DNA of 64,000 nucleotides from an uncultured Gemmataceae bacterium (GTDB lineage Bacteria > Planctomycetota > Planctomycetia > Gemmatales > Gemmataceae), in the NCBI GenBank assembly GCA_963750165.1, contig CAVVPN010000011.1, forward strand, positions 768,001-832,000. Reading direction: 5' to 3'. Below, piece by piece: positions 32,570 to 48,679 of the stretch; position 1 is the first letter of the stretch; every line of letters begins with the position of its first letter. The position numbers and the translations under genes are program-made. A model generated the notes under the pieces. It worked only from the letters and a program-made list of their open reading frames with translations, had not been told where the DNA came from and did no database searches.

Positions 32570-35500
32570 TCACGCCAGGCTCAGCGCCAGGATTTCCACG
32601 TTGCCGTTACCGGGCAACCGGATGCTCTGCACGGTTTTGCCCGCGAGCAAGCTCAGGCTGTAGCCGTACACGTGGAACGTGTGGCTGTCCCGGCCGCCGC
32701 TGGCCAGGTCGCGGTAGGCCAGGTCCACGGCGTCGGACTCGCCGGCGTAGTGCTGCGGCGTGTACCAGTCACTGATGCTTTGCGTGAACGTCTGCGTGCT
32801 GCCGTCGGTGTAGGTCACCACGAACGTCTGGTTCGGCTGGTTGCCGTTCACGGCGGTCGCCAGGAAGTTCAGCGTCGTGTAACTCCCTACGGGCAGGCTG
32901 ATCGTCTGGCCGGCCGCGGCGATGACGTTGTTGCCGCCGGCCGCGCCCAGGGTGAACTGGGTGCCGTTCCACGTCTGGCTGGTCCCCAGCAGGTTCGCCG
33001 AGAGCGCGGCGCCGCCGCCGTCCAGGCCGCCCGTGAAGGTGCTGCCGTCATTGACGATGCCGACCCGGTTGAAGGCGCCGGCCAGGGACACCGAGCGCCC
33101 GCCCGCCGGCGAGACCGGGTCCACGAAGTTGTCGAAGCGGACGTGGCCGGTGAAGCTCGCGGGCGTCGCGGTGCGGAAGCCCGGCTTCACCGCCGACGCC
33201 GTGCCCAGTGTCGTCAGGCCCGTGATCGAGTACGACACGGGCGCCAGCACGGTCGTCCCGGTGCCGACTCCCGTCGGGCCGTAATCGACCAGCGAGAACG
33301 TGCCCGAGAAGCTGCCCGATGCCGTCTCCTTCGTGGTGAAGATCAGGTCGAGCCAGTCGCCGGCGGTGATGGTGCCAGTCGGCCGGGTGTTGTTGGTCGA
33401 GGTGGCGGGCGAGGCGCCGTTGTCGTACTGGAACTCGACGGTGTTGTTGCCGAGGATGTGCGCGGAGATGAACGAGAAGCCGGCGTTGAAGCCCGTGGAC
33501 GTCGGCGCCAGGAAGCCGACCTGCAACGGCTTGTCGCCGCTGCCCAGGCCCGAGACGGCCGTCACGTACTCCGAGAGGGTGTGGATCTGGCTGTCGGACA
33601 GGTTCACCGTTGAGGGGGTGTAGATCGCCGTGGCGTCGATGGCGACGCTGCCGCTGGACTGCACGCCGCCGCCCGCCGCGGGGCCCGGCTGGTCCTGCAC
33701 GCCGAACGCCGCGCCCCACGACAGGCTCGTGTTGTTGGCGCCGCCGTTGTTATACAACGTGAAGTTCGACGTGAAGGTACTCGCCCCGGCGTTGAAGTTG
33801 ATGTTGACCCCCGTGACGGCCGTGATCGTGAACGAACTGGATGTGGCGCCGGTCAAGGTACCGTCGCTGGCGGCCAGGGTATAGGTGCCGGCCGTGTTGA
33901 TGGCGAGGTTGCCGAACGTGGCGACGCCGTTGACGGCGGCCGCGCTCACGGTGCTGGAACCGCCGGCGAAGGTGCCGCTGCTGAGCGTCAATGTCACGGT
34001 AGAAGTGTTGCCGGGGACCGTGTTGCCGTTGGCGTCCTGCACCGCGACCGTCACCGCGGGGGTGATGGTGGCGCCGGCAGTCGCGTTGCTCGGCTGCTGG
34101 GCGAACGCCAGCCTGGCCGCGGCGCCGGCGGTGATTGCGAACGAAGTGGAGGTGACGCCGGTCAGCGTGCCGTCACTGGCGGTCAGCGTGTAACTGCCGG
34201 CGGCGTTGATGACGAGACTGCTGAAGGTGGCGACGCCATTGACCGCGGCCGCGCTCACGGTGCTGGAGCCGCCGGCGAAGGTGCCGCCGCTGAGTGTCAG
34301 CGTCACGGTGGACGTGTTGCCGGTGACGGTGTTGCCGAGGGCGTCCTGCACCGCCACCGTCACGGCGGGACTGATCGCCATGCCGGCGGCGGTGTTCGTC
34401 GGCTGCTGGGCGAACGCCAGCTTGGCCGCGGCGGCGGGGTTGATCGTGAACGGGCCGTAGCCCGGATCGAGGTTGGGGTTGGTGTCCGTGGCCCGCAGGA
34501 TGTAGCTGCCGGCGGCGTTGATGACCAGGTTGCTGAAAGTGGCCATGCCGTCCACAGCCTGGGCGCTGACGGTGGTGCTGCCGTTGGCGAAGGTGCCGTG
34601 GCTGAGCCCCGCCGTGACGGTGGACGTGTCGCCGACGAGGATGTTGGAGTTGATGTCCTCGACGGCGGCGACAAAGGCGCCCAGGGGCACCCCGGCCGTG
34701 CCGCTGCTGGGCTGTTGCAGGTACGCCAGCTTCGCGGCCGTGGAATCGACCAGGAAATTGTCGAACGCCAGGGTGCCGGTGCCGCCGCTGTTGGAGGTGC
34801 GGAAGCCCGCGTACATGGTGGCGGCGGTGCCCACGGTGGTCAGGCCGGTCACGGTGTAGGCCACCGGCGCCAGCACCAGTGTCGGCGCGGCGGTGCCGGT
34901 CGGGCCGTAGTCGAGCAACGAGAACGTGCCGTGGAAACTGCCCGAGGCAGTTTCCTGTGTGGTGAAGACCAGCTGCAGCCAGTCGCCGGTGGTGATGGTG
35001 CCCGTCGGCGTGGTGGTGTCGAGGGCGACGGCACTGGTGCCGGCTCCGTTGCCGGACTGGAACTCCACCTGGTGGTTGCCGTAGACGCGGGCCGAGATGA
35101 ACGAGAAACCCGCGTTGAACCCGGCCGTCCGCGAGGTCAGGAAGCCGATCTGCAGGGTGCGGTCGCCGGCGGGGCGAACCGGGGCGGTCACAAATTCCGA
35201 GACCGTGTGAACGGCCCCGTCCGAGAGGTTGAAGGTGGTCGGCGTGTAGACGGCCGTCTCGTCGGTGGCGGTGCCGATGATGCCGCCGCCAGCCGCGCTG
35301 CCGGCCTGGTCGTCGATGCCGGCGGTGGCGCTCCAGGTAAGGGCGGTGCCGCCTGCCACGCCGGCGAGGTTGGTGGCGAACGGTGTCGTGAAACTGCTCG
35401 CGCCGCTGTTGAAGTTGACGAAGGCGGTCGCCCCGATGGTGAACGTGTTGGACACGACGGCGGCGAGGGTGCCGTCGGAGGCGGTCAGGGTGTAGGTGCC

Positions 35501-38500
35501 GTTGTTGGCGACGGCCAAGGTCCTGAAGGTGGCCACGCCGGCCACGGCCTGGACGCTGACGGTGTTGCCGCCGCCGGTGAAGATGCCGCCGCTGCTGAGC
35601 GTCAACGTCACCGTGGACGTGTCGCCCGGCAGCACACTACCGGCGGCGTCCTCGACCGCCACGCGGACGGCCGGGCTGATGACGGTGCCGCTCGACGTGC
35701 CGCTCGGCTGCTGCAGCACGGCGAGTTTTGCCGCGGGGCCGTAATCGACGTTGATGTAGGCGGTGACGCCGGTGACGTTGTAGTCCGTGGTGTCGGTCGG
35801 CGTGAAGACGACGCCGAGGGGCTGGTGCTGTCCGGGAGCGAGCACGGTCCCGGCGGCCGGGTTGTAGGTGAAGGTGCCGGGCACGTTCGCGGTGGCGTCG
35901 AGCTGGGTCACGCTCAGAGGGGTGCCGTCGGTGATGTCGGCGGGGTTGGCCCAGGTGATGACGGGCGTGGCCGGGTCCACGTCCACGTCGGACTGGGCCG
36001 TCACGGTGTTGTAGTCGGCGGTGTCGGTCGGCGTGAACGTGACACTCAGGGGGAAGTTCTGGCCGGTGGGCGGGATGGTGCCGGCTCCCGGAGTGTAGAC
36101 GAAGCTGCCGGGGATGGTGACGCCGTTGACCGTGGCGGTGGCGTTGAGCTGGGCCGGCCCCAGGGCTTGACCGTAGGTCATGTCGGTGTCGGGACCGGTC
36201 CAGGTGATGACGGGCGTGGCCTTGACCACATTGACGAGCACCGTGGCGTTGGCCGTGGCGTAGTCAGCCGAGTCCGTCGGCGTGAACGTGACCGTGAGCG
36301 GCTGGTTCTGCCCCACGGGCAGGACGGTCCCGGCCGGCGGCGAATAGCTGAAGGTGCCGGCGAAACCCGCGTAATTGCTCACGAAGGCGTCGAGTTCAGT
36401 GCCGTCCAGGGCGGTGCCGTAGGTCAGGTTGGCGGGCGTGGCCCAGGCCAGGGTGGGCGTCGCCGGGCCGACGACGAAATCGTCGATGGAGACGGTGCCG
36501 CTAACGACCTTGACCACGATGGTGTGGCTGCCCGCCGTCAGCAGCGGACTGGTGTAGACCGGGGCGATGACCGACGTGGCAGCCGTGAGGTTGACCTGTG
36601 TCGGCGAGTTGCCGTCGATGAAGACCTGGGCGGCGCCGCCGGTCGGCGTCAGGGCGGCGTAGAGGGTGATGAGGGTGCCGGTGAACGTGACCGTGGCGGT
36701 GTCGCCGCCAGTGCTGTCGCTGGTGATGGTGCCGCCGTTGTTGTTCGGCAGGCTCGTCGGCGTCTGCACCCAGTTCGTGGTCGGGTTGGAGTAAACGACC
36801 TGCGGGATGCTGCCGGTGTTGTTGGCGTTGTTGTCGTCGATGACGGTCAGCGTGTGGGTGCCGATGGTGAACGCAAACGACGTGGCGGCGGTCAGGCCCG
36901 GGTCGGTGGCGGTGAGGGTGTAGGTACCCGGCGCGGTGATGACGAGGTTGTTGAAGCTGGCGACGCCGTTCACGGCCGCGGCGGTGGCGGTGGTGCCGCC
37001 GCCGAAGAAGGTGCCGCCGCTCAGCGTCAGCGTCACGGTGTCAGTGTTGCCCGTGGCGACGTTGCCGAAGCCGTCCTCCAGGGCCACGGCCACCGAGGGA
37101 TTGACCGCCTCACCGGCATAGGTGTTGTTCGGCTGCTGCGTGAAGACGAGCTGCGTGGCCTGGGCGACGACGTTGAACGGGTTGGACTGCACCGCGGGCA
37201 GCACGCCGTCGGTGGCGGTCAGGTTGTAGCTGCCGGTGACGTTGAGGACGAGGTTGCTAAACGTGGCCACGCCGTTGACGGCCTGGGCGCTGACGGTGGT
37301 GCTGCCGTTGGCGAAGGCGCCGTGGCTGAGCGTGAGCGTCACCAGGGAATTGTCGGTGGTGATGACGTTGCCCGCGGAATTCTCGACGGCGGCGGTGACG
37401 GCGGGACGGACCGCGACGCCGGCGACGGTCTGTGTCGGCTGCTGGGTGAAGGCGAGCCGGGTGCTGGCGGCGATGGTGAAGGGACTGGACGTGGCACTCG
37501 TTAGCAGGCCGTCCGTGGCAGTCAGCGTGTAGGTGCCGGCGGCGCTGATGAGCAGGTTGCTGAACGTGGCGACGCCGCTGGTCATCTGGGCGGTCACGGT
37601 AGTGCCGCCGCCGACGAAGGCGCCGCCGCTCAGCGTCAGCGTCACGGTGGAGGAACTGTCGGCGGTGAAGATGTTGTTGAACTGGTCCTCGGCCGAGACC
37701 ATGATCGGCGGACTCAGGGCGATGCCGGCGCTGCCGGTCGCCGGGGGCTGAGTGGTGAACACCAGCTTCGTCTCCGCCGCGGGCGGGATCGGCGTGCTGC
37801 GGCTGCCGCTCGTGTGGTCGCCGGCGGCATCGGTGATGCTCACGGTGTTGGTGACGCTGGTCGTGCCGACGGGAATGCTGGCGTTGAGATCGACGGAGAA
37901 GACCACCGACCCCGTGACGCCGGCGCCGAGACTGCCCACCGTGAAGGTGTAGGTCGAGCCGGCGCCGCCGCTGCCCGAGGTCAGCGTCCAGCCCGACGTG
38001 CTGTCGGCCAGGTCGGCGGTGGTGTTGGCCGGCACCGTCTCGGTCAGCACCACACCGGTCGCGGCCGTGCCGAGACTGTTCACGATGCTGCCGGCGTCGT
38101 TGTAGTTGATGGTGTAGGGGATGGTGCTCTGGGCCGTGGGGAGGATGTTGCCGTCGGTCAGCGACACGCCGAGCTGCGCGGCCGAGCCCGTCGTCGGCGT
38201 GATTTCCAAGCGGTCAATGGAGATGGTGTTGCTGGCGGCGTTGTTCAGGATCTCGAAGGTGTGCGTGCCGGCTCCGAGTCCCGAGACGGTGTAGACGAGC
38301 ACGTCGCCGGCGCCCATGCCGTTGGGCGAGCTGTTGGCCGGTGACAGCAACACCGACTGCGTGCTGCCGCCATCGACGGAGAAGGTCGCCGTGCCGTAGC
38401 CGCTCACCTCGTTGGCGTACACCTTGATCTGCGAACCGGTGAACGTGAGCGTGGCGTAGTCGCCCTGCACGTTGTCCGTGCTGACCGTGCCGTCGAAGGT

Positions 38501-40543
38501 GCCCATCGTGGAACTGCCGGTGATGTGCGTCCAGCCGGTGCCGACGTAGTTGAACTGGTTCATGCCGGTGCCGGTGACGGCATCATCGACGATGGTGTCG
38601 CCGGTGAGGCCGAACGCCTGGATGCTGTGTGTGCCGACGAAGACATCGCCGCGGGCAACGGCGATGCTGTTGTACTTGCCGCCCAGGCCCACCTCCTGGT
38701 AGGCGCTGCTCCAGATCGGCTGCATGGTCAGAGCGTTGTAAGCGTAGAGAACCGGGTCGCCGTTGGAAAAGCTGGTGAGGCTGTCGGTGCGCTGCACGCC
38801 GGCGTCCACCACCCAGTCGATCTCGTTGGCGGTGCCGTTGCCGGTGATGAGGTTCGAGCCGGGGTTGCTCATGACCGCCGTGTTCGAGGCCACCACCTGC
38901 AGGTAGGCGGGCTGGCCGGGACTGTGCATCACCTTCGTGAGAATCAGCGACGGGGCCACCGGCGTGCTGGAACCGACGCCCGACTTGCTGCTGCCGGCGA
39001 AGATCACGTACTGACTGCCGTCGGGCCCGGTGAAGGTCGCTGGCGTGTCGCGCGCCTTGGCGGTGTTGCCCGAGGCGCTGGACTCGTTGTAGGGGCCGAA
39101 CAGGGACAGCGGGCCGTCCTGCGCCGGGAAGCCCTGCCAGTAGGTGCGCACGCCCGTGCTGGTGGTGTCGTACAGCGATGGGTCCTGGTCCGGGGACAGA
39201 CCGCTGGGCGGCCGGGACGTGAGGCTGGCCGGGTAGGCGGCCGGGCTGCCGTTGGGGTTGGCCGTCGGGTTGTTCAGGTGGTTGCCGGCGTCGGCGAGGT
39301 AGCCGTTGCCCTGCTTGCCGCCGAAGGCCGCCAGCTCGGTGGTCGTGGACGAGCCGGCCGGCAGGTTGATGAGGATGGGCGAGCCGCCACCGAGGTCGCT
39401 GTCGATGGTGTCCTGGGTCGGGTAGTTCCACGGCGTGTAGACGCCGGTGAGCGTCAGCGTCTGACTGGGGCCGAACTCCAGCAGGGAGTTGCCCCAGTCG
39501 CCGGCCGGGTTGCCGGTGCCGCCGGGCGAGTCGCCGGTCGTGACGAAGACGTTGCCGTTGCTGTCGATGGTCGGCCCACCTGCCCCCCACATGCCGCCGT
39601 TGGCGCTGGTGGCGGTGCTATCGACCGCCGAATAAGCGCTGACGATGGCCGGCGTCTGGCCGTTGGCCGTCCCGTTGGTGACGCCGGTGGCCACGGTCGT
39701 CATCCAGCCGGGGTTGCTGGCGCCGTAGCAGGCAAAGTCCACGTAGAGCGTGCTGCCGTCCGCGCTGAGGTTCAGCCCCCCGCGCTGGTCGGCGCCGCTG
39801 GACGAGAAGGGCACCGCAATGCCCGGACCCTGCAGCGTGTTCTGGTTCAGCGAATCGAGCAGCGACTGGGTGAAGATCAGCGGCCAGCCCGAGACGAGAC
39901 TGCCGTCGTGCAGGCTCAGGGCGAAGACCTCAAAATTGTTGCCGCCGTGGTTGGGGTTGCCGGCCGCGGAGAGGTAGTCGGTCACCGACGCGGTCACGTA
40001 GAGCCGGCCGCTGGCCAGGTCGATGACCGGGGTGCTCAGGACGCCGATGCTGTTGCCGTCCACGCCGGCGTAGGGGTTGCCGAGGTGCGTCTTCCACAGG
40101 ATGGTGCCGGGGGCGATGCCGGTCGGGCCGTTGGTGTCCTGGGCCGCGATGGCGTAGACGGTGCCGCCGCCGGTGGCCGCGAAGACGACGCCCAGCGACT
40201 TGTTCTGAAACGACGCACTCTGAACGCCGTCGCCGGAGTGGTTGGCAGCGTTGCCGGGGCCGGAGATGAGTAAGCTGTCCAGGAACAGCGGCGTGGCGTA
40301 GATGGCGCCGTCGAGCTGGGGCGACTGCCAGACCTGGCCGAAGCCCGACGCCACGTTGGTCGGGGTCAGCACGGTTTCCACGGAGTTGAAGCCGGTGCGG
40401 GCGGCGTCGCCGTGGAACTCGGTGTTGCTGGGGGCGCCGGGCTGCTGCCCGAGGGTGAAGGACGGCGTCAGGCGGTCTTCCAACCGCTCCAGGTGCAGGC
40501 GTGAACGGGGGGCCTTTTGGGGGCGGGGAACGCGGCGCGGCAT
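32570..40543 (-). CDS. Giant surface protein/adhesin: LEDR motif, beta-propeller, CBM-like, DUF11-like and Ig-like repeats
   Basis: RLHLERLEDRLTPS; PQQ-like propeller; repeated KLAFxQQP...AVNGVATFSNL units; three TPxITW repeats; Thr/Gly-rich. Confidence 0.9.
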   Translation of the reverse strand: MPRRVPRPQKAPRSRLHLERLEDRLTPSFTLGQQPGAPSNTEFHGDAARTGFNSVETVLTPTNVASGFGQVWQSPQLDGAIYATPLFLDSLLISGPGNAANHSGDGVQSASFQNKSLGVVFAATGGGTVYAIAAQDTNGPTGIAPGTILWKTHLGNPYAGVDGNSIGVLSTPVIDLASGRLYVTASVTDYLSAAGNPNHGGNNFEVFALSLHDGSLVSGWPLIFTQSLLDSLNQNTLQGPGIAVPFSSSGADQRGGLNLSADGSTLYVDFACYGASNPGWMTTVATGVTNGTANGQTPAIVSAYSAVDSTATSANGGMWGAGGPTIDSNGNVFVTTGDSPGGTGNPAGDWGNSLLEFGPSQTLTLTGVYTPWNYPTQDTIDSDLGGGSPILINLPAGSSTTTELAAFGGKQGNGYLADAGNHLNNPTANPNGSPAAYPASLTSRPPSGLSPDQDPSLYDTTSTGVRTYWQGFPAQDGPLSLFGPYNESSASGNTAKARDTPATFTGPDGSQYVIFAGSSKSGVGSSTPVAPSLILTKVMHSPGQPAYLQVVASNTAVMSNPGSNLITGNGTANEIDWVVDAGVQRTDSLTSFSNGDPVLYAYNALTMQPIWSSAYQEVGLGGKYNSIAVARGDVFVGTHSIQAFGLTGDTIVDDAVTGTGMNQFNYVGTGWTHITGSSTMGTFDGTVSTDNVQGDYATLTFTGSQIKVYANEVSGYGTATFSVDGGSTQSVLLSPANSSPNGMGAGDVLVYTVSGLGAGTHTFEILNNAASNTISIDRLEITPTTGSAAQLGVSLTDGNILPTAQSTIPYTINYNDAGSIVNSLGTAATGVVLTETVPANTTADLADSTSGWTLTSGSGGAGSTYTFTVGSLGAGVTGSVVFSVDLNASIPVGTTSVTNTVSITDAAGDHTSGSRSTPIPPAAETKLVFTTQPPATGSAGIALSPPIMVSAEDQFNNIFTADSSSTVTLTLSGGAFVGGGTTVTAQMTSGVATFSNLLISAAGTYTLTATDGLLTSATSSPFTIAASTRLAFTQQPTQTVAGVAVRPAVTAAVENSAGNVITTDNSLVTLTLSHGAFANGSTTVSAQAVNGVATFSNLVLNVTGSYNLTATDGVLPAVQSNPFNVVAQATQLVFTQQPNNTYAGEAVNPSVAVALEDGFGNVATGNTDTVTLTLSGGTFFGGGTTATAAAVNGVASFNNLVITAPGTYTLTATDPGLTAATSFAFTIGTHTLTVIDDNNANNTGSIPQVVYSNPTTNWVQTPTSLPNNNGGTITSDSTGGDTATVTFTGTLITLYAALTPTGGAAQVFIDGNSPTQVNLTAATSVIAPVYTSPLLTAGSHTIVVKVVSGTVSIDDFVVGPATPTLAWATPANLTYGTALDGTELDAFVSNYAGFAGTFSYSPPAGTVLPVGQNQPLTVTFTPTDSADYATANATVLVNVVKATPVITWTGPDTDMTYGQALGPAQLNATATVNGVTIPGSFVYTPGAGTIPPTGQNFPLSVTFTPTDTADYNTVTAQSDVDVDPATPVITWANPADITDGTPLSVTQLDATANVPGTFTYNPAAGTVLAPGQHQPLGVVFTPTDTTDYNVTGVTAYINVDYGPAAKLAVLQQPSGTSSGTVISPAVRVAVEDAAGSVLPGDTSTVTLTLSSGGIFTGGGNTVSVQAVAGVATFRTLAVANNGTYTLTASDGTLAAVVSNTFTIGATAFVNFNSGASSFTTPFATNLAGVAGGTALTWSATAGIDDQAGSAAGGGIIGTATDETAVYTPTTFNLSDGAVHTVSEFVTAPVRPAGDRTLQIGFLTSRTAGFNAGFSFISARVYGNHQVEFQSGNGAGTSAVALDTTTPTGTITTGDWLQLVFTTQETASGSFHGTFSLLDYGPTGTAAPTLVLAPVAYTVTGLTTVGTAATMYAGFRTSNSGGTGTLAFDNFLVDSTAAKLAYLQQPSSGTAGVPLGAFVAAVEDINSNILVGDTSTVTAGLSHGTFANGSTTVSAQAVDGMATFSNLVINAAGSYILRATDTNPNLDPGYGPFTINPAAAAKLAFAQQPTNTAAGMAISPAVTVAVQDALGNTVTGNTSTVTLTLSGGTFAGGSSTVSAAAVNGVATFSSLVINAAGSYTLTASDGTLTGVTSTSFAITAGAAARLAFAQQPSNATAGATITPAVTVAVQDANGNTVPGNTSTVTLTLSSGTFAGGSSTVSAAAVNGVATFGNLAINTAGTYTLAASDGTLTGATSSSFTITAVTGVNINFNAGASTFTSNFTLYNNGGANNTSLSWGAAFGVQDQPGPAAGGGVQSSGSVAIDATAIYTPSTVNLSDSQIHTLSEYVTAVSGLGSGDKPLQVGFLAPTSTGFNAGFSFISAHILGNNTVEFQYDNGASPATSTNNTRPTGTITAGDWLDLIFTTKETASGSFSGTFSLVDYGPTGVGTGTTVLAPVSYSITGLTTLGTASAVKPGFRTATPASFTGHVRFDNFVDPVSPAGGRSVSLAGAFNRVGIVNDGSTFTGGLDGGGAALSANLLGTSQTWNGTQFTLGAAGGNNVIAAAGQTISLPVGSYTTLNFLATAVNGNQPNQTFVVTYTDGSTQTFTQSISDWYTPQHYAGESDAVDLAYRDLASGGRDSHTFHVYGYSLSLLAGKTVQSIRLPGNGNVEILALSLA

Positions 40544-41060
40544 GGGTCCTTCTCTCCGATGCAAGAGGACGGGTACCGGGGCAACGGGTTTACGGGCAAC
40601 GGGGCGACTGCGGACGACGTGAGGGGCACTGCAGGGAATCCCGCGATTAGCCCCGGACACCCACGGATACAAATTGGCGAAATAGATGTGAGAGAACGTA
40701 GCCCGCCTGGGTCGGGTGGTCAAGGAAAAAATGAAAATCCGTGGTCAGAATGCAAGCCGAAATGACTCGGGGTCTCCGAACTCGCAATCCTCAACGGGGA
40801 AATCCAGCTTCTCAGGTCTTGTCCCGCAACGTGTAGGCCGCGGCCAATAAGCGCGGCCGCTTCCCGAGAGTTCGGCTCCACAATGTCTATCGAATCTCCG
40901 AGGGGAACTGACAGTCGGGTCGTCGCCGTCCCCAGGGAAGCGCAGCATTGGCGAAAAGCGATGCCGAACGTTGCCGGGTCGCCCTGGGCGGTTACCCACC
41001 CAGGGCTCCCACAGATCCGGACGTGCGGAATTACCGCATCCGGCTCGTCCGGCCAACGGT

Positions 41061-41885
41061 TCACACGCGCCGGTACACCGAGTGGACCACCCGTGCTGCC
41101 GGCAGCGGATACCGCTCCAGCAGTCCCCACAGGCTCGCCCAGCCGAAGCAGCCTTTCCAGCTACGCCGAGAAAGCCACTTCCGCCAGATTCGCGCCACGA
41201 TTGCTCGCACACGGTCCAACGAGGAGCAGTTCCCCGTCACCCCGTAGTAGACGTCGTGGCCGCGTAGCTTCTGGCTCAGTGTCGCGTGCTGCTCCTGGAT
41301 CGGTCGGTGCCGGTTGCGCCGACACCATTCCCCTATCGCTTTCGCGAACCGGCGGATTCGGCTGGCTGCCGTCCGTTTCTTGACTGCCGCGTTGTTCTTC
41401 CTCGACTTCCCCCAATAATGGGTGAACCCCAGGAAGTCAAACGTCCGCAGTTGGTTGCCCCCCTGCGGTCCCTCTTGTCCTTTCTGCTCCCGGGGCCGCG
41501 CGAACGGCACCAGTCGCGTCTTGTCCGGGTGGATCGACAGCCCGTACTTGCCGAAACGCTTCGGCAGCACCTCCATCACTCGTCGTGCGTCTGACTCATC
41601 GGTGAACCCGATTACGAAGTCGTCGGCGTAACGGATCAGGAAGGTTCGGCCCAAAAGACGTGGCTTAACCACTTCTTCCCACCAGACGTCCAGCACGTAG
41701 TGCAGATAGACGTTGGAAAGCAAAGGAGAGATCACCCCGCCCTGGGGGGAGCCTGTCGAGGGATACGTCACTGCACCCCCCTCCATCACTCCCGCGGAAA
41801 GCCATTTGCCGATCAGTCGTAGCGCTACCCCGTCACGTACCCTTTGCCTGAGCAGTTCCCGCAAGTGGGCATGATCCAGCGTGTC
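41061..41885 (-). pseudogene. ltrA: Group II intron RT/maturase, C-terminal part (no endonuclease domain)
   Basis: DTLDHAHL..GSPQGGVISPLLSNVYLH..IRYADDF..FDFLGF, then the X domain. Confidence 0.93.
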
Positions 41886-42226
41886 AAACGACCTACCAAC
41901 ATGATGCCCCCTTCGAGCACCCGCCTGAGGAGCCTGAAGAGGTCGAGGTGACCGACCCGACCCACCCGCTGTTCGGGCGGCGTTTCCGTGTCGTGTCCAT
42001 CAGCCATCCGCCGCGACGCCCCGGCCAGGTCACCGTGGCCTACCGGCAGGGGATGCGTCTGCGCATCCCCGTCCTGGCCACTAACCTGGTCCCTGGCACT
42101 GCTGCGTCGCCTCGCAGTAAGCTCACCAGAGTAGCCCTGCTCGATCTCCTCGCTCTGGTGAAGGAGTGCGAAGCCTCATGTCCCGTTCCCCCCGGCGCGT
42201 CTGGTCCGGACTCTCCGATGGCCTGA
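41886..42226 (+). CDS. Y4bD/Y4pK (DUF5372)-like small protein, open from the element's left end
   Basis: VTDPTHPLFGRRF motif; the frame has no stop from the junction through the GTG at 41948. Confidence 0.6.
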
Positions 42227-42393
42227 AAAAACAGGTCATTGGCGATCTTCTTTCTGTCTTCAAGGAGGTACTCCATGAGCTTGCCCGAAACCATTCAACC
42301 CACCCACCTGGATCGCCTGGCCGTCGTCTACGTCCGCCAGTCCAGCCCCCACCAGGCCCTTGCCAATCAGGAGAGTCTCAAACTCCAGTATGA
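42178..42393 (+). CDS. Small accessory ORF overlapping both neighbours
   Basis: MSRSPRRVWSGLSDGLKKQVIGDLLSVFKEVLHE, an amphipathic helix. Confidence 0.4.
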   Translation: MSRSPRRVWSGLSDGLKKQVIGDLLSVFKEVLHELARNHSTHPPGSPGRRLRPPVQPPPGPCQSGESQTPV

Positions 42394-44343
42394 TCTGCGC
42401 CACAAGGCCCAGGCTGCCGGCTGGGACCCTGGCCGGATCCGGGTCATCGACACCGAGCTGGGCCGCACCGGCCGCTCCGCCACAGGACGCGCCGGCTTCC
42501 AGGAGCTGGTCACCCTGGTCAACCAGGAGCAGGTCGGCATCATCTTCGCCTACGACGTCACTCGCCTGGCCCGCAACTGCACCGACTGGTATCAGCTCCT
42601 CGACCTGTGCGGCTGGCGGCACTGTCTGGTCGGCGATCAGGACGGCATATACGACTCTACCACTCCCAATGGCAGACTTATCCTGGGACTCAAGGGCTTG
42701 ATCTCCGAACTGGAGCTGCACACCTTGCGGGCCCGCCTGACCGCCGGCCTGCTCAACAAAGCCCAGCGCGGTGAGCTGGCCAAACCGCTACCCATCGGAT
42801 TAATTCGCGACCCGCTGGGGCGGGTGCTCAAGCATCCCGACCAGGAGGTCCAGGGCCGGCTGGACCTGGTCTTCGCCACCTTCCTGCAGCTCCGAGCCGC
42901 CTGCCGGGTGGTCCGCCACTTCAACGGCCATGAGTTGCTGTTGCCGCGGCGAGATCGCTTTGGCGATCTGGTTTGGCGGCAACCGACGGTCCCGGCCATT
43001 CTGTCCATCCTGAAGAACCCCGCCTACGCCGGCGCGTTTGTCTACGGCCGGACCCGGACGGTGCCCAGGGCCGTGCGCCTCACGAGCGGACCCAGAAAAC
43101 GCTGCCGATGGACGAGTGGAAAATCCGCATCCCTGACAAGTATCCGGCCTACATTGATTGGCCGACGTTTGAGACAATCCAGGGTATGATCCGCGACAAC
43201 CACTCTGAGTATGATCGCAACCAGACCCGGGGTGTGCCTCGCCCCGGCAAGGCGCTGCTGCACGGCATCGTCTGCTGTGGCGAGTGTGGCCACCGGATGG
43301 TGGTGCAGTACAAGAAGGGGACCCGCTACCTCTGTAACTATCTGCGTCAGCACTGGCAGGTGCCGGTCTGTCAGAACCTGCCGGCCGACTCCATCGATGA
43401 CTGGGTCGTTGGGACCTTTTTCGATGTGCTTTCTCCGGCGGAACTGGATCTGTACAGCCAGGCCGTGGCGGCGTTACAGCAGGACGATGACCAGGTGCGG
43501 CAGGCACAGCGGCAACAGCTCGAACGGCTCCGCTACCAGGCGCGGCTGGCCGAGCGGCAGTACAACCAGGCCGACTCGGACAACCGGCTGGTGGCCGCCG
43601 AACTGGAGCGGCGCTGGGAGGCGGCACTGCGGGAACTGAAGGACGCGGAAGAGAAGTTCCAGCAGCAGCAACAACAGCCGCGGCTGGCCGAAGCGTTGAC
43701 TGCGGCAGAGAGGGAAGCGTTCCTGCAGGCCGGCAAGAAAATCCCCCAGTTGTGGCAACAGGGCCGGTTGTCGCAGCAGCAGAAGAAGGCGTTCCTGCAC
43801 TGCCTGATCGACAAGGTGGTCGTCCACCGCTCCGCTCCAGATACTATTCAGGTGCGTATTGTTTGGAGAGGTGGCGAGGCGACGGCCAAGGCGCTGACGG
43901 TGACGGTGGGCTCGCTGGCGCGGCGGTCGGGGTCGGCGGAGATGGAAAAGAAGATCCTCGAAATGGTCAAAGAGAACAAGAGCGATGAAGAGATTGCCAC
44001 TCTGTTGACCCGAGAAGGGCATCGTTCGCCGAAGCACGACGCCGTGCTGGTCAGCACGGTGCGAACCATCCGCCTGCGCCACCGCCTGTTCCGCAAGCGT
44101 AGCCAGTCCCACCCGCGCCACATCCCCGGCCACCTGACCATCCCGGAACTTGCGGACCGCCTGCGCCTCAAGCCAGGCTGGCTCTACCACCAGATTCACA
44201 ACGGCACGATCCAGGTCGCGCGCGACGCGGAAACGAACCTCTACCTGTTCCCCGACCACCCCAGTACCATCGCCCGGTTCGAGCAACTCCGGGCTGGCAA
44301 GATCCAGAAGTTGCGTTTTTATGGAGGGTATCAAGATGCGTGA
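42275..44343 (+). CDS. Large serine recombinase with a C-terminal HTH extension; frameshift near 43065
   Basis: AAGGAGGT RBS; YVRQSS, DVTRLARN, ILKNPAYAG, Zn ribbon CGECG..C..C, coiled coil, final LTIPELADRLRLKPGWLY. Confidence 0.9.
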
Positions 44344-44345
44344 TC

Positions 44346-44864
44346 GAAGAATTTGCGGATGTCCACTTCCAAGACCCAGCCGCCCCCGTTCTTCATCAAG
44401 TGCTGCCGTAGGTCTTCCAGAGCCTGGTGTGCCGATCGGCCTGGCCGAAACCCGTACGAGCAGGGCTTGAAGTCCTGCTCATAGATCGGTTGCAGTAGCA
44501 GGACGATCGCCCGCTGGAGGACCTTGTCCTCCAGCGTTGGTATCCCGATCGGCCGGGTCTCAGCAGACCCGGGTCCTTTCGCGATATGCACCCGTCGCAC
44601 CGGCGGTGCCCGGTAGGAGCCGGACTTGGCCCGTTCCAGAAGCGAACGCAGATTGGCAGTCAGGTCCGCTTCGTAGTCCGCGGCGGTGATCCCGTCCACA
44701 CCAGAAGCACCATCCCGGCGCGTGCTCCAGTAGGCCACGAGCAACCAGGTGAAGTCGAGGTGGTGGTTCAGGGAAGCGAATCCCATTTGCGGGGCTTGCC
44801 GCGCAAGCTCCGCTATCCGCCGTTGTCGCGTTGACACGGGATCGGCTCCTGGAATAGCCGCCAT
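44346..44864 (-). pseudogene. ltrA: Group II intron RT, N-terminal part
   Basis: GVDG, YRAPPVRRVHI, RPIGIPTLEDK, SYGFRPGRSAHQA, VLEVDIRKFF. Confidence 0.93.
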
Positions 44865-45772
44865 GTTTCCCTCCAGCGGATCGTTGACCAGAGGCCCCCT
44901 TCCCTGTCCAGGCTCCGGGCCGGGGTAGCCCGTTCGCCTGACGTAGCGGTACTATGAGGCCTTCCGACTCCTGCCTGCCCATCGGCCCAAGCTCATTGGG
45001 TTCGCCGAGGACCTACCGCCGTGTGCCAGCGATGAGTTCGCTCCCTTCGCGGCTCGCTGGCAACCGCGGGGCCCGGGCACCTTGAATCGGCTGACCCGCA
45101 CAGCCGAGAGTAACGGCGGGAACAGACAGGCCTCCCAGGTTCCTGGGGAACCCCAAGGTGGCCGCGCCGACTTCTAAAGACCCCGGCGGGACCGCCCCCC
45201 AGGCCAGTACAGGAGAGCAGGCGCGGCCACCACATGCGCGCACGGCAGGGGCTCCCGCGAAGAGACCTAATTTCGGGGCTGAATGGGCCGGCTCGGGACA
45301 CAGGCTGTCTACGCTTCGCCCGCCAGGTCGCCCTGGAGGACGCAAGACTCGCTTCCGGCTGTTGGCCAGACTCTACCGGGTGGGCTCGATGACCCACTGG
45401 GTTCCACCGAAAGGTTTTGAGCTGTTTCCTACATCTCTCCTCCTTCCCCAGGCTTTCCCTGGCGCAGCGCGCTTCGGTCCGCCCCACCGAAGTGAGTTCG
45501 TGTCGAAGCGTTCGACGCGGAGGTCACATCGGCCGCTGGATCGACCAAGCGGGCACAGTCCGTGAGCACCCCGCAGCGCCAGTGCCCGCGGGTAGGCGCC
45601 CGCCACCTTCGTCTTCGGCGTTCGTAACCGAGCGCTGGCGTTGCGGCGCGTCTGCCGACCGTGTCCCGTGTTCATTTTCCCTTCAGCATCGGTCTCAGGC
45701 TTGACCCGCCCGGCAGCCGGCGGTAGCTGTGAAGGCGCCCACCGGGTGACGGGGATTCGGCGTCGCGGCACG

Positions 45773-46192: not shown

Positions 46193-46456
46193 GGTCGGGG
46201 ACTACTGGGGCGGAACCGGGCTGCGACCAGTTCAACTGGGCGCAATCGCCAGGTCAAGTGGAGGCCCCGGATGGCCCTGAGTTTTTCGTTGACGGCGGCG
46301 CGGGCCGGCCGGAAGATGTCGTGGGGGTGACGAAAGGCACGGATTGCGCTTCACCGCCGGGGTGTCGGTGCTCGCGGCTTGCGGCCGCCGAACAGCCGGA
46401 TCGTCGGCATGACCCGGTGTTTACCTCGTTTCAATCATAAGGAAGGAGTTGCTCTC

Positions 46457-48679
46457 ATGCTCCGGCACCTACTTTTGCCAGCCTTGCTTTGCCTGGGAGG
46501 ACCAGTTGTTGCCTCCGCGCAGAACCCGGCCGCCGGCAAACGATCGGTCGCGGACCTCATTGCCGGACTCAAAAAAAGCGAGTATGAGAAAACGCAAGCT
46601 TTTCAGGAACTGGAGGCCCTCGGCCCAAAGGCGGCGGCGGCCATCGAGGCCCTGGTGGAGGTGCTGGCAGAAAATAATAAAAATGATCACCTGCGAGCGC
46701 TTATCGTCCTTGGGAAAATCGGCAAGCCTGCGGTGGAGCGGCTTACCCAGCTCCTGACCTGTGAGGACGAGGAGATCCGGCTTTATGCCGTCTGGGGGCT
46801 GGCCCTGGTCGGCCCTCCAGCCAAAGACGCGGCGCCGGCAGTGATCCAGGCGTTGGCGGATAAATCGGCCGGCGTGAGAGCGAAAGCGGCGTACGCCCTG
46901 AGCCGCATTCACCCGGAGCCGGAACAAGCCGTCCCCGCCCTGGTCAAGGCTCTGGCCGATGATGAGGAATCCGTGCGTCAAGCGGCGGCGGCGAGTCTGC
47001 CCCCCATGGGCAAGGCCGCCGTTGCCCCCCTGATCAATACCTTGCAATCCAACAAGGCCGGTCTCCGCGCAATCGCGGTCAGAATCCTCGTTGAGATCGG
47101 GGCGGCCGCGGAACCAGCCATTCCGCAGTTAAAGACCTTCCTGCTCCGGCCGGAAAAAGGAATTGCCGAATCGGCCGCCGAGGTCCTCGCCGGCCTTGGC
47201 GCCCCCGCAGTTCCCGTCCTGCGTGTGGCCGCCACCAATCCGGACAACAAGGTCCGCGACCTGGCGCTACGGTCGCTGCAAAAAATCGGCGCCCCCGCGA
47301 TTCCTACCCTGGTGGATCTCCTGGGCGACCAGAATCAGGAGTTGCGCCGCCGGGTCGCGGGGATTCTCGGCTCCATGCAGATTCACGACAAGATGGTGGT
47401 GAACGGCCTGGGGTACGCCCTCAAGGACAAGGACTTTCAGGTGCGGCGCAGTGCCTTGCAAGCCTTGCGCAGTTTCGGCACCGAGGCCAAGTTGGCGGAG
47501 CCTGACGTCAGCGCCTTGCTGACCGACCTCCACCCACAACTTCGACTGGAGGCATTTCAGACGTTACAGGGTCTGGGCGTTGACCCGCGTCCCATTTTGA
47601 AGAAGGCATTGAGCCATCCCGACCCCGCCGTTCGCACCCCTATCGCCAGCCTCATGGTGCAGCTCAAGGTGGAAGTCGATCTGGCAGAGCCGGTTCTCCT
47701 CCAGGGATTGAAGGAGAAGAACGGCGCCCTGAAGATGCTGGCGGCTCTGTCCCTGGCGCAACGCGGTTTGCAAGCCGACGTGGTCTTGCCCATCTTCATC
47801 GACGGCCTCAAGAACGAGGAGACCAGCGTCCGGCGGCAGGCGGCAGAAGCCATAGCCCGCTACGGCCCCAAGGGACGCATAGCGGAGGCCAACCTCACGG
47901 CCGCTCTGGACGATCCGGACGGCGGCGTCCGGTTACAGGCCCTGCTGGCACTGCGGAAGGTCGCAGATGCCAAAACGCTGATGCCGGCCATGATCAGGGT
48001 ACTCAAACAAAAGGACACCATCCTACACCGTCAGGCGGCCCAGGTTATTTTCCAGGTCGGGCCCGAGGCGGTGGGATTCATCGTGGCGGTTCTCAAGCAG
48101 GAGGACGCGCCGGCCGTACGGCTGGTGTGTTTGCAGACGTTGGCGATGGTCGGGCCGCGGGCCAAGGAAGCCGTGCCCGAGTTGATCAAGGCGCTGAAGG
48201 AGCCTGCGCCACGGGCCAGACTGAACGCCGCCCGCGCCCTGGGCAACATTGGTCCCGACGCCAGGGAGGCTCGAACGGCACTGGCCCAGGCCGAGAAGGA
48301 TGCCGACGACACCGTGCAAAAAATCGCCAGTGCCGCTCTGGCCCAGATCATTGCCGACCCCAAACAGACAATATTCGAGGCGCAGGGGTTGCTCGCTCCA
48401 GGCGATCCGCTCGATCGAGTGCGCACCGGTGCCTTCCACGTGGTTCATACCTTCCCGATGAAAGCCGGTAAAACCTACACGGTCAACCTGAAGTCGCCCT
48501 GGGATAATTTCCTGCGCTTGGAAGACCCGCAAGGCCAGCAGGTGGCTCAGGACGACGACAGTGGCGGGATGCTCAACGCCCGGATCATTTACGTGGCCCC
48601 AACCGACGGCTGGTATCGGATCATTGTCACCAGTTACGGCAATGGTGTCTCGGGGAATTACACGTTGAAGGTTGAGTGA
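46457..48679 (+). CDS. Secreted HEAT-repeat protein with a C-terminal PPC-like domain
   Basis: Repeated A.PALV.AL.D....VR..AA..L; C-terminal DNFLRLED..G..VAQDDDSGG.LNARI. Confidence 0.9.
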   Translation: MLRHLLLPALLCLGGPVVASAQNPAAGKRSVADLIAGLKKSEYEKTQAFQELEALGPKAAAAIEALVEVLAENNKNDHLRALIVLGKIGKPAVERLTQLLTCEDEEIRLYAVWGLALVGPPAKDAAPAVIQALADKSAGVRAKAAYALSRIHPEPEQAVPALVKALADDEESVRQAAAASLPPMGKAAVAPLINTLQSNKAGLRAIAVRILVEIGAAAEPAIPQLKTFLLRPEKGIAESAAEVLAGLGAPAVPVLRVAATNPDNKVRDLALRSLQKIGAPAIPTLVDLLGDQNQELRRRVAGILGSMQIHDKMVVNGLGYALKDKDFQVRRSALQALRSFGTEAKLAEPDVSALLTDLHPQLRLEAFQTLQGLGVDPRPILKKALSHPDPAVRTPIASLMVQLKVEVDLAEPVLLQGLKEKNGALKMLAALSLAQRGLQADVVLPIFIDGLKNEETSVRRQAAEAIARYGPKGRIAEANLTAALDDPDGGVRLQALLALRKVADAKTLMPAMIRVLKQKDTILHRQAAQVIFQVGPEAVGFIVAVLKQEDAPAVRLVCLQTLAMVGPRAKEAVPELIKALKEPAPRARLNAARALGNIGPDAREARTALAQAEKDADDTVQKIASAALAQIIADPKQTIFEAQGLLAPGDPLDRVRTGAFHVVHTFPMKAGKTYTVNLKSPWDNFLRLEDPQGQQVAQDDDSGGMLNARIIYVAPTDGWYRIIVTSYGNGVSGNYTLKVE

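Follow-up and report, generated by a model that had tools for sequence, protein, structure and literature searches.

How does a small serine-recombinase element that carries neither a repressor nor a known directionality factor (RDF) control the direction of its recombination? The locus described here provides a testable answer, in which the state of the DNA would decide whether a cofactor of the recombinase is present. It was analysed within a window of 64,000 nucleotides (the whole stretch of DNA under study, from an uncultured Gemmataceae bacterium), to which all plain coordinates refer. The first gene of the element, orfA, has no start codon of its own at the left end of the integrated copy, and a ribosome-binding site (RBS) with an ATG is found at the opposite end. 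The reading favoured in this study, with a probability of roughly one half, is that the split orfA is rejoined in the excised circle and that its product, OrfA, would likely act as a cofactor turning the recombinase toward reinsertion. Three points are established at the level of sequence comparison: the split gene itself, an att palindrome centred on AA and the conservation of the reading frame.

The element and the gene that it interrupts

The features of the locus are the following.

41887..44348, plus strand: IS-like large-serine-recombinase element, 2460 bp plus the repeated AA core (empty site, target alignment, empty-site joints in public contigs)
41887..41913, plus strand: left end, with the AA core and the P-prime arm of attP, orfA codons 5-13 (15/25 mirror matches; arm consensus of 15 elements)
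41888..42226, plus strand: orfA body, DUF5372-like, 112 codons without a start of its own at the left end (PF17342)
41948..41950, plus strand: internal GTG at residue 21 of the orfA body, possible secondary start in a subclade (RBS -6.4 kcal/mol)
42178..42393, plus strand: orfB, conserved small ORF with its own RBS, extending from the last part of orfA into the first part of the recombinase gene
42275..44343, plus strand: large serine recombinase, with Resolvase and Recombinase domains, zinc ribbon with coiled coil, and C-terminal HTH (Pfam)
44322..44348, plus strand: right end, with the P arm of attP carrying GGAGGG (44323-44328), the ATG (44336), orfA codons 1-4 and the AA core (sequence; ATG in 15/15 right arms)
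44349..44864, minus strand: 5' part of the interrupted reverse transcriptase gene, the target (RVT_1, TIGR04416)
41061..41886, minus strand: 3' part of the interrupted reverse transcriptase gene (RVT_1, GIIM, TIGR04416)
45170..45388, minus strand: group II intron RNA domains D1-D4 (RF02005, 98.1 bits)
40973..41048, minus strand: group II intron 3' domains (RF00029, 36.7 bits, below the gathering score of 40; E 1.1e-4)

The three genes of the element follow one another on the plus strand in the order orfA, orfB, large serine recombinase, and no replication or transfer gene is found within it. The element is inserted antisense in the reverse transcriptase (RT) gene of a group II intron, a point that adds to the original prediction. 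Its deletion in silico (2460 bp) restores an RT ORF of 448 aa, which is the same whether the core is taken as TC or AA. The same length is obtained by blastx of both flanks against RT proteins (four of five hit pairs), and contigs in four of eight public runs (X1, X2, X4, X7) skip exactly 2460 bases at this position. These contigs come from relatives, other than the source strain, and related introns with an empty site therefore exist. The element is a single copy in its own genome, which also holds a second RT gene without insertion (G000:C11:1754842-1755465) and a distant recombinase fragment (G000:C11:1857956-1858303). Just downstream of the intron lies the gene of a 2717-aa repetitive protein with weak Ig-like matches (32570-40723, minus strand), and upstream of it that of a 766-aa HEAT-repeat protein (46379-48679, plus strand).

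The recombinase matches PF00239, PF07508 and PF13408 above cut-off, the matches spanning a one-base frameshift. Indeed, a one-base deletion near 43065-43070, relative to the closest full-length relative (L120), splits the gene into two overlapping ORFs; the reading frame is open for about 697 aa in relatives. This deletion is either real or an assembly error. Sister copies in other few-contig genomes (L041 versus L042) also carry differing frameshifts, which hints at assembly errors. The match of orfA to PF17342 (DUF5372) has an E value of 4.8e-5 and 23.8 bits, under the curated cut-off of 25, yet a protein atlas groups it with DUF5372 clusters (score 0.94); it is therefore named DUF5372-like. 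Two relatives, L070 and L081, score above the PF17342 cut-off.

The small orfB begins 46 nt before the orfA stop, is conserved only over its first ~35 residues, is visible by eye in most of 17 elements and has no match in Pfam. It is a short amphipathic ORF, the last conserved codons of which form the RBS and start of the recombinase gene. An 11-pair hairpin (42215-42242) covers the orfA stop just upstream of this RBS. Both orfB and the recombinase gene possess their own RBS (-8.3 and -12.7 kcal/mol, respectively), so that the closed translation loop through orfA, orfB and the recombinase, as first proposed, is not needed; this part of the proposal is not supported, orfB starting moreover inside orfA. 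No sigma-70 promoter consensus was found in 41700-44500, the joined sequence being inspected by eye only.

The predicted circle junction and its frame in the family

The position of the crossover determines how OrfA would begin. When the two ends are joined, an imperfect palindrome, taken as attP, appears about AA with 15/25 symmetric matches, against 4/25 about TC. The AA core copies are located at 41887-41888 and 44347-44348. Four relatives (L040, L048, L082, L087) have AA in common without TC, and relatives inserted in IstB genes share AA only. A TC crossover is ruled out by this symmetry together with the relatives sharing only AA. The TC core and the MRDQ protein start of the original prediction are consequently replaced by the AA core that it had listed as an alternative, with which the OrfA of the circle would begin MRDRTT. 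Its proposal that attP lies inside the accessory gene is borne out, the palindrome about AA falling within orfA, after codon 4. Across the family, the palindrome reaches 13-18/28 symmetric matches in the AA/TA clades and is weaker, with 10-12/28, in distant clades.

The right end reads as originally described: GGAGG (44323-44327), an 8-nt spacer and an ATG (44336-44338) overlapping the end of the recombinase gene at its stop TGA (44341-44343). Scripted joining of the ends, with a TC or AA core alike, gives a stop-free ORF of 116 aa running from the ATG at 44336 into the DUF5372-like ORF. In all 15 elements compared, the recombinase stop falls between 17 nt before and 5 nt after this ATG. In many relatives the recombinase ends at a TAG overlapping the RBS; the window lacks that TAG (44321-44343) and its recombinase reads past the orfA ATG.

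Relatives were drawn from three sets of 401 genomes each, of the class (matches in 82), of the phylum and of a second phylum, and from plasmids; a related-locus search of genome contigs gave just three loci. Element length was set independently of the hypothesis, from the alignment of the two flanks with one and the same target protein. Of the 41 orfA-bearing elements with sufficient flanking sequence, 26 were resolved in this way. No length could be set for the other 15, nor in 35 of the 37 additional recombinase loci or in 15 of the 17 loci of a later set. Under a preset rule (of the starts within the last 45 nt, the one with the best RBS), the join was in frame and stop-free in 22/26. With the junction-proximal ATG, a rule picked after the results of the preset rule had been seen, the start was in frame with orfA in 24/26, a set that includes sister copies and close kin and thus represents about six geometries and not 26 independent trials. 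The right-end ATG was also in frame in both of two further target-defined elements, and in all six elements that were placed via sister copies and kept out of the counts. The two exceptions are L051, with a one-base loss in the extension, and L083, an interrupted element in which the start codon is lost.

This conservation of frame spans recombinases from 61% down to 28% identical to the copy of the window, and it is kept across differing cores (AA, TA, GG-containing, CCTT) and spacings. The distance from start to core is 66, 69, 72 or 75 nt, so that length changes preserve the frame. Between the left end and the core of the protein, stops interrupt the orfA frame in one element of 26, and the other two frames in 6 and 19. 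In ten elements, uncorrected pairwise counts beyond the att arm give a pN/pS of 0.60 in the orfA frame versus 0.97 and 1.34 in the others, and the value of 0.17 for the orfA core denotes strong protein-level constraint. The check originally suggested was whether homologous elements keep the right-end RBS and ATG in the frame of the left-end ORF; its outcome favours the proposal, since junction frames are not random. Nor do OrfA homologues all start at the internal GTG, a codon present in 3/26 elements, and the stretch upstream of it stays open. This result would also provide DUF5372 with its true start, database entries being truncated or beginning in flanking DNA.

Some members of the wider group depart from the common size or content. 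L228, of 4394 bp with extra cargo, keeps the in-frame junction. Two more distant recombinase elements, L091 and L072 (with its right end at about 4550 and its left end at about 2044), have no DUF5372 profile match; their right-end RBS and ATG, once the ends are joined, continue in frame into the longest ORF of the left end (about 110-120 aa), in which only a helix like the end of DUF5372 is seen by eye. The layout with a right-end start may have outlasted the barrel domain in these two cases.

Traces of the circle itself were sought in public data. Of 195 homologous proteins in which the core could be recognised, one had a junction-type start. This natural protein, P0009, begins MRDRTT, carries the expected 25-residue extension and is encoded on a contig of 2494 nt. 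Its close relatives are elements of 2464 bp, and we infer that the contig represents a circular 2464-bp element with a 30-nt assembly overlap. A strict circle-junction motif had no match in metagenome contigs. Looser motifs gave 88 metagenome and 24 viral loci (112), of which 11 were element ends, all integrated and without a junction. In eight of 22 public runs, which hold relatives only (each with 0.05-0.07 of the words), no returning joint was present among those listed.

Possible roles of OrfA

The insertions of the family lie in conserved motifs, at two sites in RT genes and two in IstB, as well as in rve-type transposases, other serine recombinases and, in a single case, dctP. Most of these are genes of other mobile elements, and L110 and L111 lie in genes of other large serine recombinases. 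Near-identical copies occupy one motif in divergent RT alleles, different subclades are found in different gene families, and the att arms and the target sites have DNA features in common. Several genomes contain multiple copies (G344 with four, G292, G204). A tree of the catalytic domain (66 rows, 7 dropped) is for the most part poorly resolved and shows only that DUF5372-bearing elements lie on several branches. What emerges is a family whose insertions fall in conserved motifs of the RTs of group II introns, of the helper and transposase genes of IS21 and of other recombinases.

In the favoured reading, the recombinase, translated from its own RBS, would excise the element as a circle. The joint of the circle would reconnect orfA, split after codon 4, and the junction ATG would yield full-length OrfA only from this form. 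OrfA would then contact the recombinase as a cofactor and turn it from excision toward reinsertion, which would split orfA again and switch the cofactor off. Such a cycle would be a two-state switch with no need of a repressor. With no replication or transfer gene in the element, a circle can last only by inserting again. A classical RDF produced solely by the circle would block this step, and an integration-promoting OrfA is for this reason preferred to the alternatives below. If OrfA indeed favours integration, directionality control of this kind would form a new class among large serine recombinases, enzymes employed in genome engineering. More tentatively, the locus may exemplify a widespread family of IS-like serine-recombinase elements, parasitic on other mobile elements, in which attP would serve as a translation switch, its arm as the RBS and OrfA as an integration-promoting inverse RDF, contrary in effect to all RDFs known so far.

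A first alternative, considered unlikely, accepts the split gene and makes OrfA a classical RDF produced by the circle, which would block immediate reinsertion and promote the excision of sister copies in a positive feedback. The SH3-like barrel predicted for OrfA does not exclude it, as RDFs have no fold in common. It is also consistent with a small gene adjacent to a large serine recombinase having a zinc-ribbon/coiled-coil region, the region bound by RDFs in the accessible text of PMC11795197 and PMC12286644. According to the same sources and PMC11722253, in the parts available, a classical RDF activates attL x attR excision and inhibits attP x attB recombination. The first excision, however, would have to proceed without OrfA, and the activity would oppose the reinsertion needed by a non-replicating circle, which the multi-copy genomes show to succeed. 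Moreover, the gene of an RDF should be intact in the integrated element, whereas start and RBS of orfA are at the other end in 24 of the 26 elements, with a truncated form initiated at the internal GTG being possible in three.

A second alternative, judged quite unlikely, again accepts the split gene; OrfA would be a leader or KOW-like factor raising recombinase output in the circle, or would bring the circle to mobile elements. The proximity of the recombinase stop to the ATG is compatible with translational coupling, and the prevalence of mobile-element genes among the targets with the second role. The AlphaFold model of OrfA (pLDDT 76.8, pTM 0.48) predicts an SH3/KOW-like barrel (residues 16-67) followed by a helix (81-96), and NusG/Spt5 KOW domains are among its best fold neighbours (Z 5.2-5.3). 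Fold matches are nevertheless weak and generic, with Z at most 5.4, values under 8 denoting a common arrangement according to the guidance of the tool. Foldseek gave no match of the model to PDB or BFVD at E 0.001 or better. The SH3/KOW-like fold, as modelled, does not decide the function of OrfA. Against this alternative also stand the separate RBS of orfB and of the recombinase gene, a constraint on the orfA core exceeding what a leader needs, and the DNA features common to target sites and att arms.

According to a third alternative, the right-end RBS and ATG would be a by-product of the recombinase site, and OrfA would be made from the internal GTG in the integrated state, or never made. 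Both arms indeed contain the GGG-ATCA motif from which the RBS derives, with a mean RBS energy of -9.4 at the right versus -8.0 in the mirrored left arms, and the codons of the att arm show no coding constraint (pN/pS 0.99). The ATG located 11 nt before the core is in contrast arm-specific, being present in 15/15 right arms, 2/15 mirrored left arms and 0/15 target arms. In terms of sequence, the start would thus be only partly an att-site by-product, its Shine-Dalgarno motif doubling as att-arm sequence. With regard to the GTG, the copy of the window has an RBS of -6.4 kcal/mol in front of it and many close OrfA homologues are annotated in the protein collection as 92-aa proteins from this codon, so that a shorter OrfA may exist in this subclade. 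The initial claim that OrfA is made only from the circle is accordingly weaker for this copy, even if it is favoured by the position of start and RBS at the other end in nearly all elements (24/26). Half of the elements (13/26) have no in-frame ATG, GTG or TTG between left end and core, and only 2/26 have a start there with an RBS of -5 kcal/mol or better. In addition, predicted strand 1 (E18-V21) and the fold alignments (from residue 16) begin upstream of the GTG, and a product initiated at this codon would therefore miss part of the barrel. With the frame held across cores and spacings, and with L051 and L083, the only exceptions, both damaged elements, this third alternative is very improbable and largely refuted.

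Finally, the RBS and ATG at the right end face outward and could, in the integrated state, drive translation of that half of the disrupted target which lies downstream. However, 20 of the 26 insertions are antisense, and in all six sense insertions the ATG position falls outside the frame of the target protein, which rules this out.

Comparison with known systems

The element can be compared with several systems in which recombination and gene expression are linked. It resembles the pairs of integrase and RDF (SPbeta SprA-SprB, phiC31, TG1, Bxb1) by the domain order of the recombinase, an attP of about 50 bp with a 2-bp core and a small neighbouring gene; in these pairs, as far as the available text of PMC12286644, PMC11722253 and PMC11795197 describes them, the RDF gene is intact in the prophage and promotes excision, whereas orfA is split on integration. 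The multi-targeting TndX-like clade of Durrant et al. has DUF4368 in most of its members (accessible part of PMC10083194); unlike these, the recombinase studied here has no DUF4368 match at E 0.1.

A similar organisation is that of a DUF5372-to-recombinase element of Sinorhizobium fredii NGR234 (pNGR234a, NC_000914.2, 33989-37258), which we take to be NGRIS-4 / y4bA-y4bD. It likewise has the DUF5372 gene first, the recombinase last and an in-frame ATG at the right end, and sits in a transposase gene; it differs by its 3320 bp, two extra genes, a CCTT core and only 29% identity in the C-terminal part of the recombinase. No description of a split gene in this element was found in the literature, nor any paper on DUF5372, nor anything relevant on y4bD, y4bA, NGRIS-4 or y4pK. 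A split DUF5372 gene was likewise not found in the literature covered, which left aside most subscription journals and supplements; att tables of large-serine-recombinase surveys may list members. The available portions of PMC10083194 and PMC10970691 contain no description of the split-gene layout.

Lyras and Rood reportedly described in 2000 a circle-junction promoter for tnpX of Tn4451/Tn4453. Like the present element, Tn4451 depends on a large serine recombinase, and it passes through a circular intermediate, as the present element would. TnpX needs no cofactor (accessible text of PMC5704250). Circle-junction promoters are also known in ICEclc (Pcirc) and ICEKp1 (PMC13023037, in the part available). 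In all of these, as proposed here, the joined ends switch on the expression of an element gene, but such promoters act at the transcriptional level and drive the recombinase, whereas the junction described here would act in translation and build an accessory protein.

Two systems place attP inside a gene. In the integration-dependent immunity of mycobacteriophage BPs, integration removes the C-terminal 33 residues of the repressor and renders it active (available text of PMC4557955). The link between gene product and recombination state would be the same; however, the 5' end is removed in the present case, the complete form would belong to the circle and the element is IS-like rather than a phage. 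In the "suicidal" archaeal integrases of the SSV1 type (SSV1, pTN3, pT26-2), the att site lies inside the tyrosine integrase gene, which is split on integration (PMC8371274, accessible part). The common principle would be a recombination site within an element gene that is whole only in the free form. In the SSV1 type the integrase itself is split, whereas here integration leaves the recombinase gene unsplit and deprives another, small gene of its RBS and start; the present element is moreover bacterial, IS-sized and based on a serine recombinase, and it would work alike without being a member of that group. Judged from the junctions compared here, the split DUF5372-like gene is a real and conserved variant of state-dependent gene splitting.
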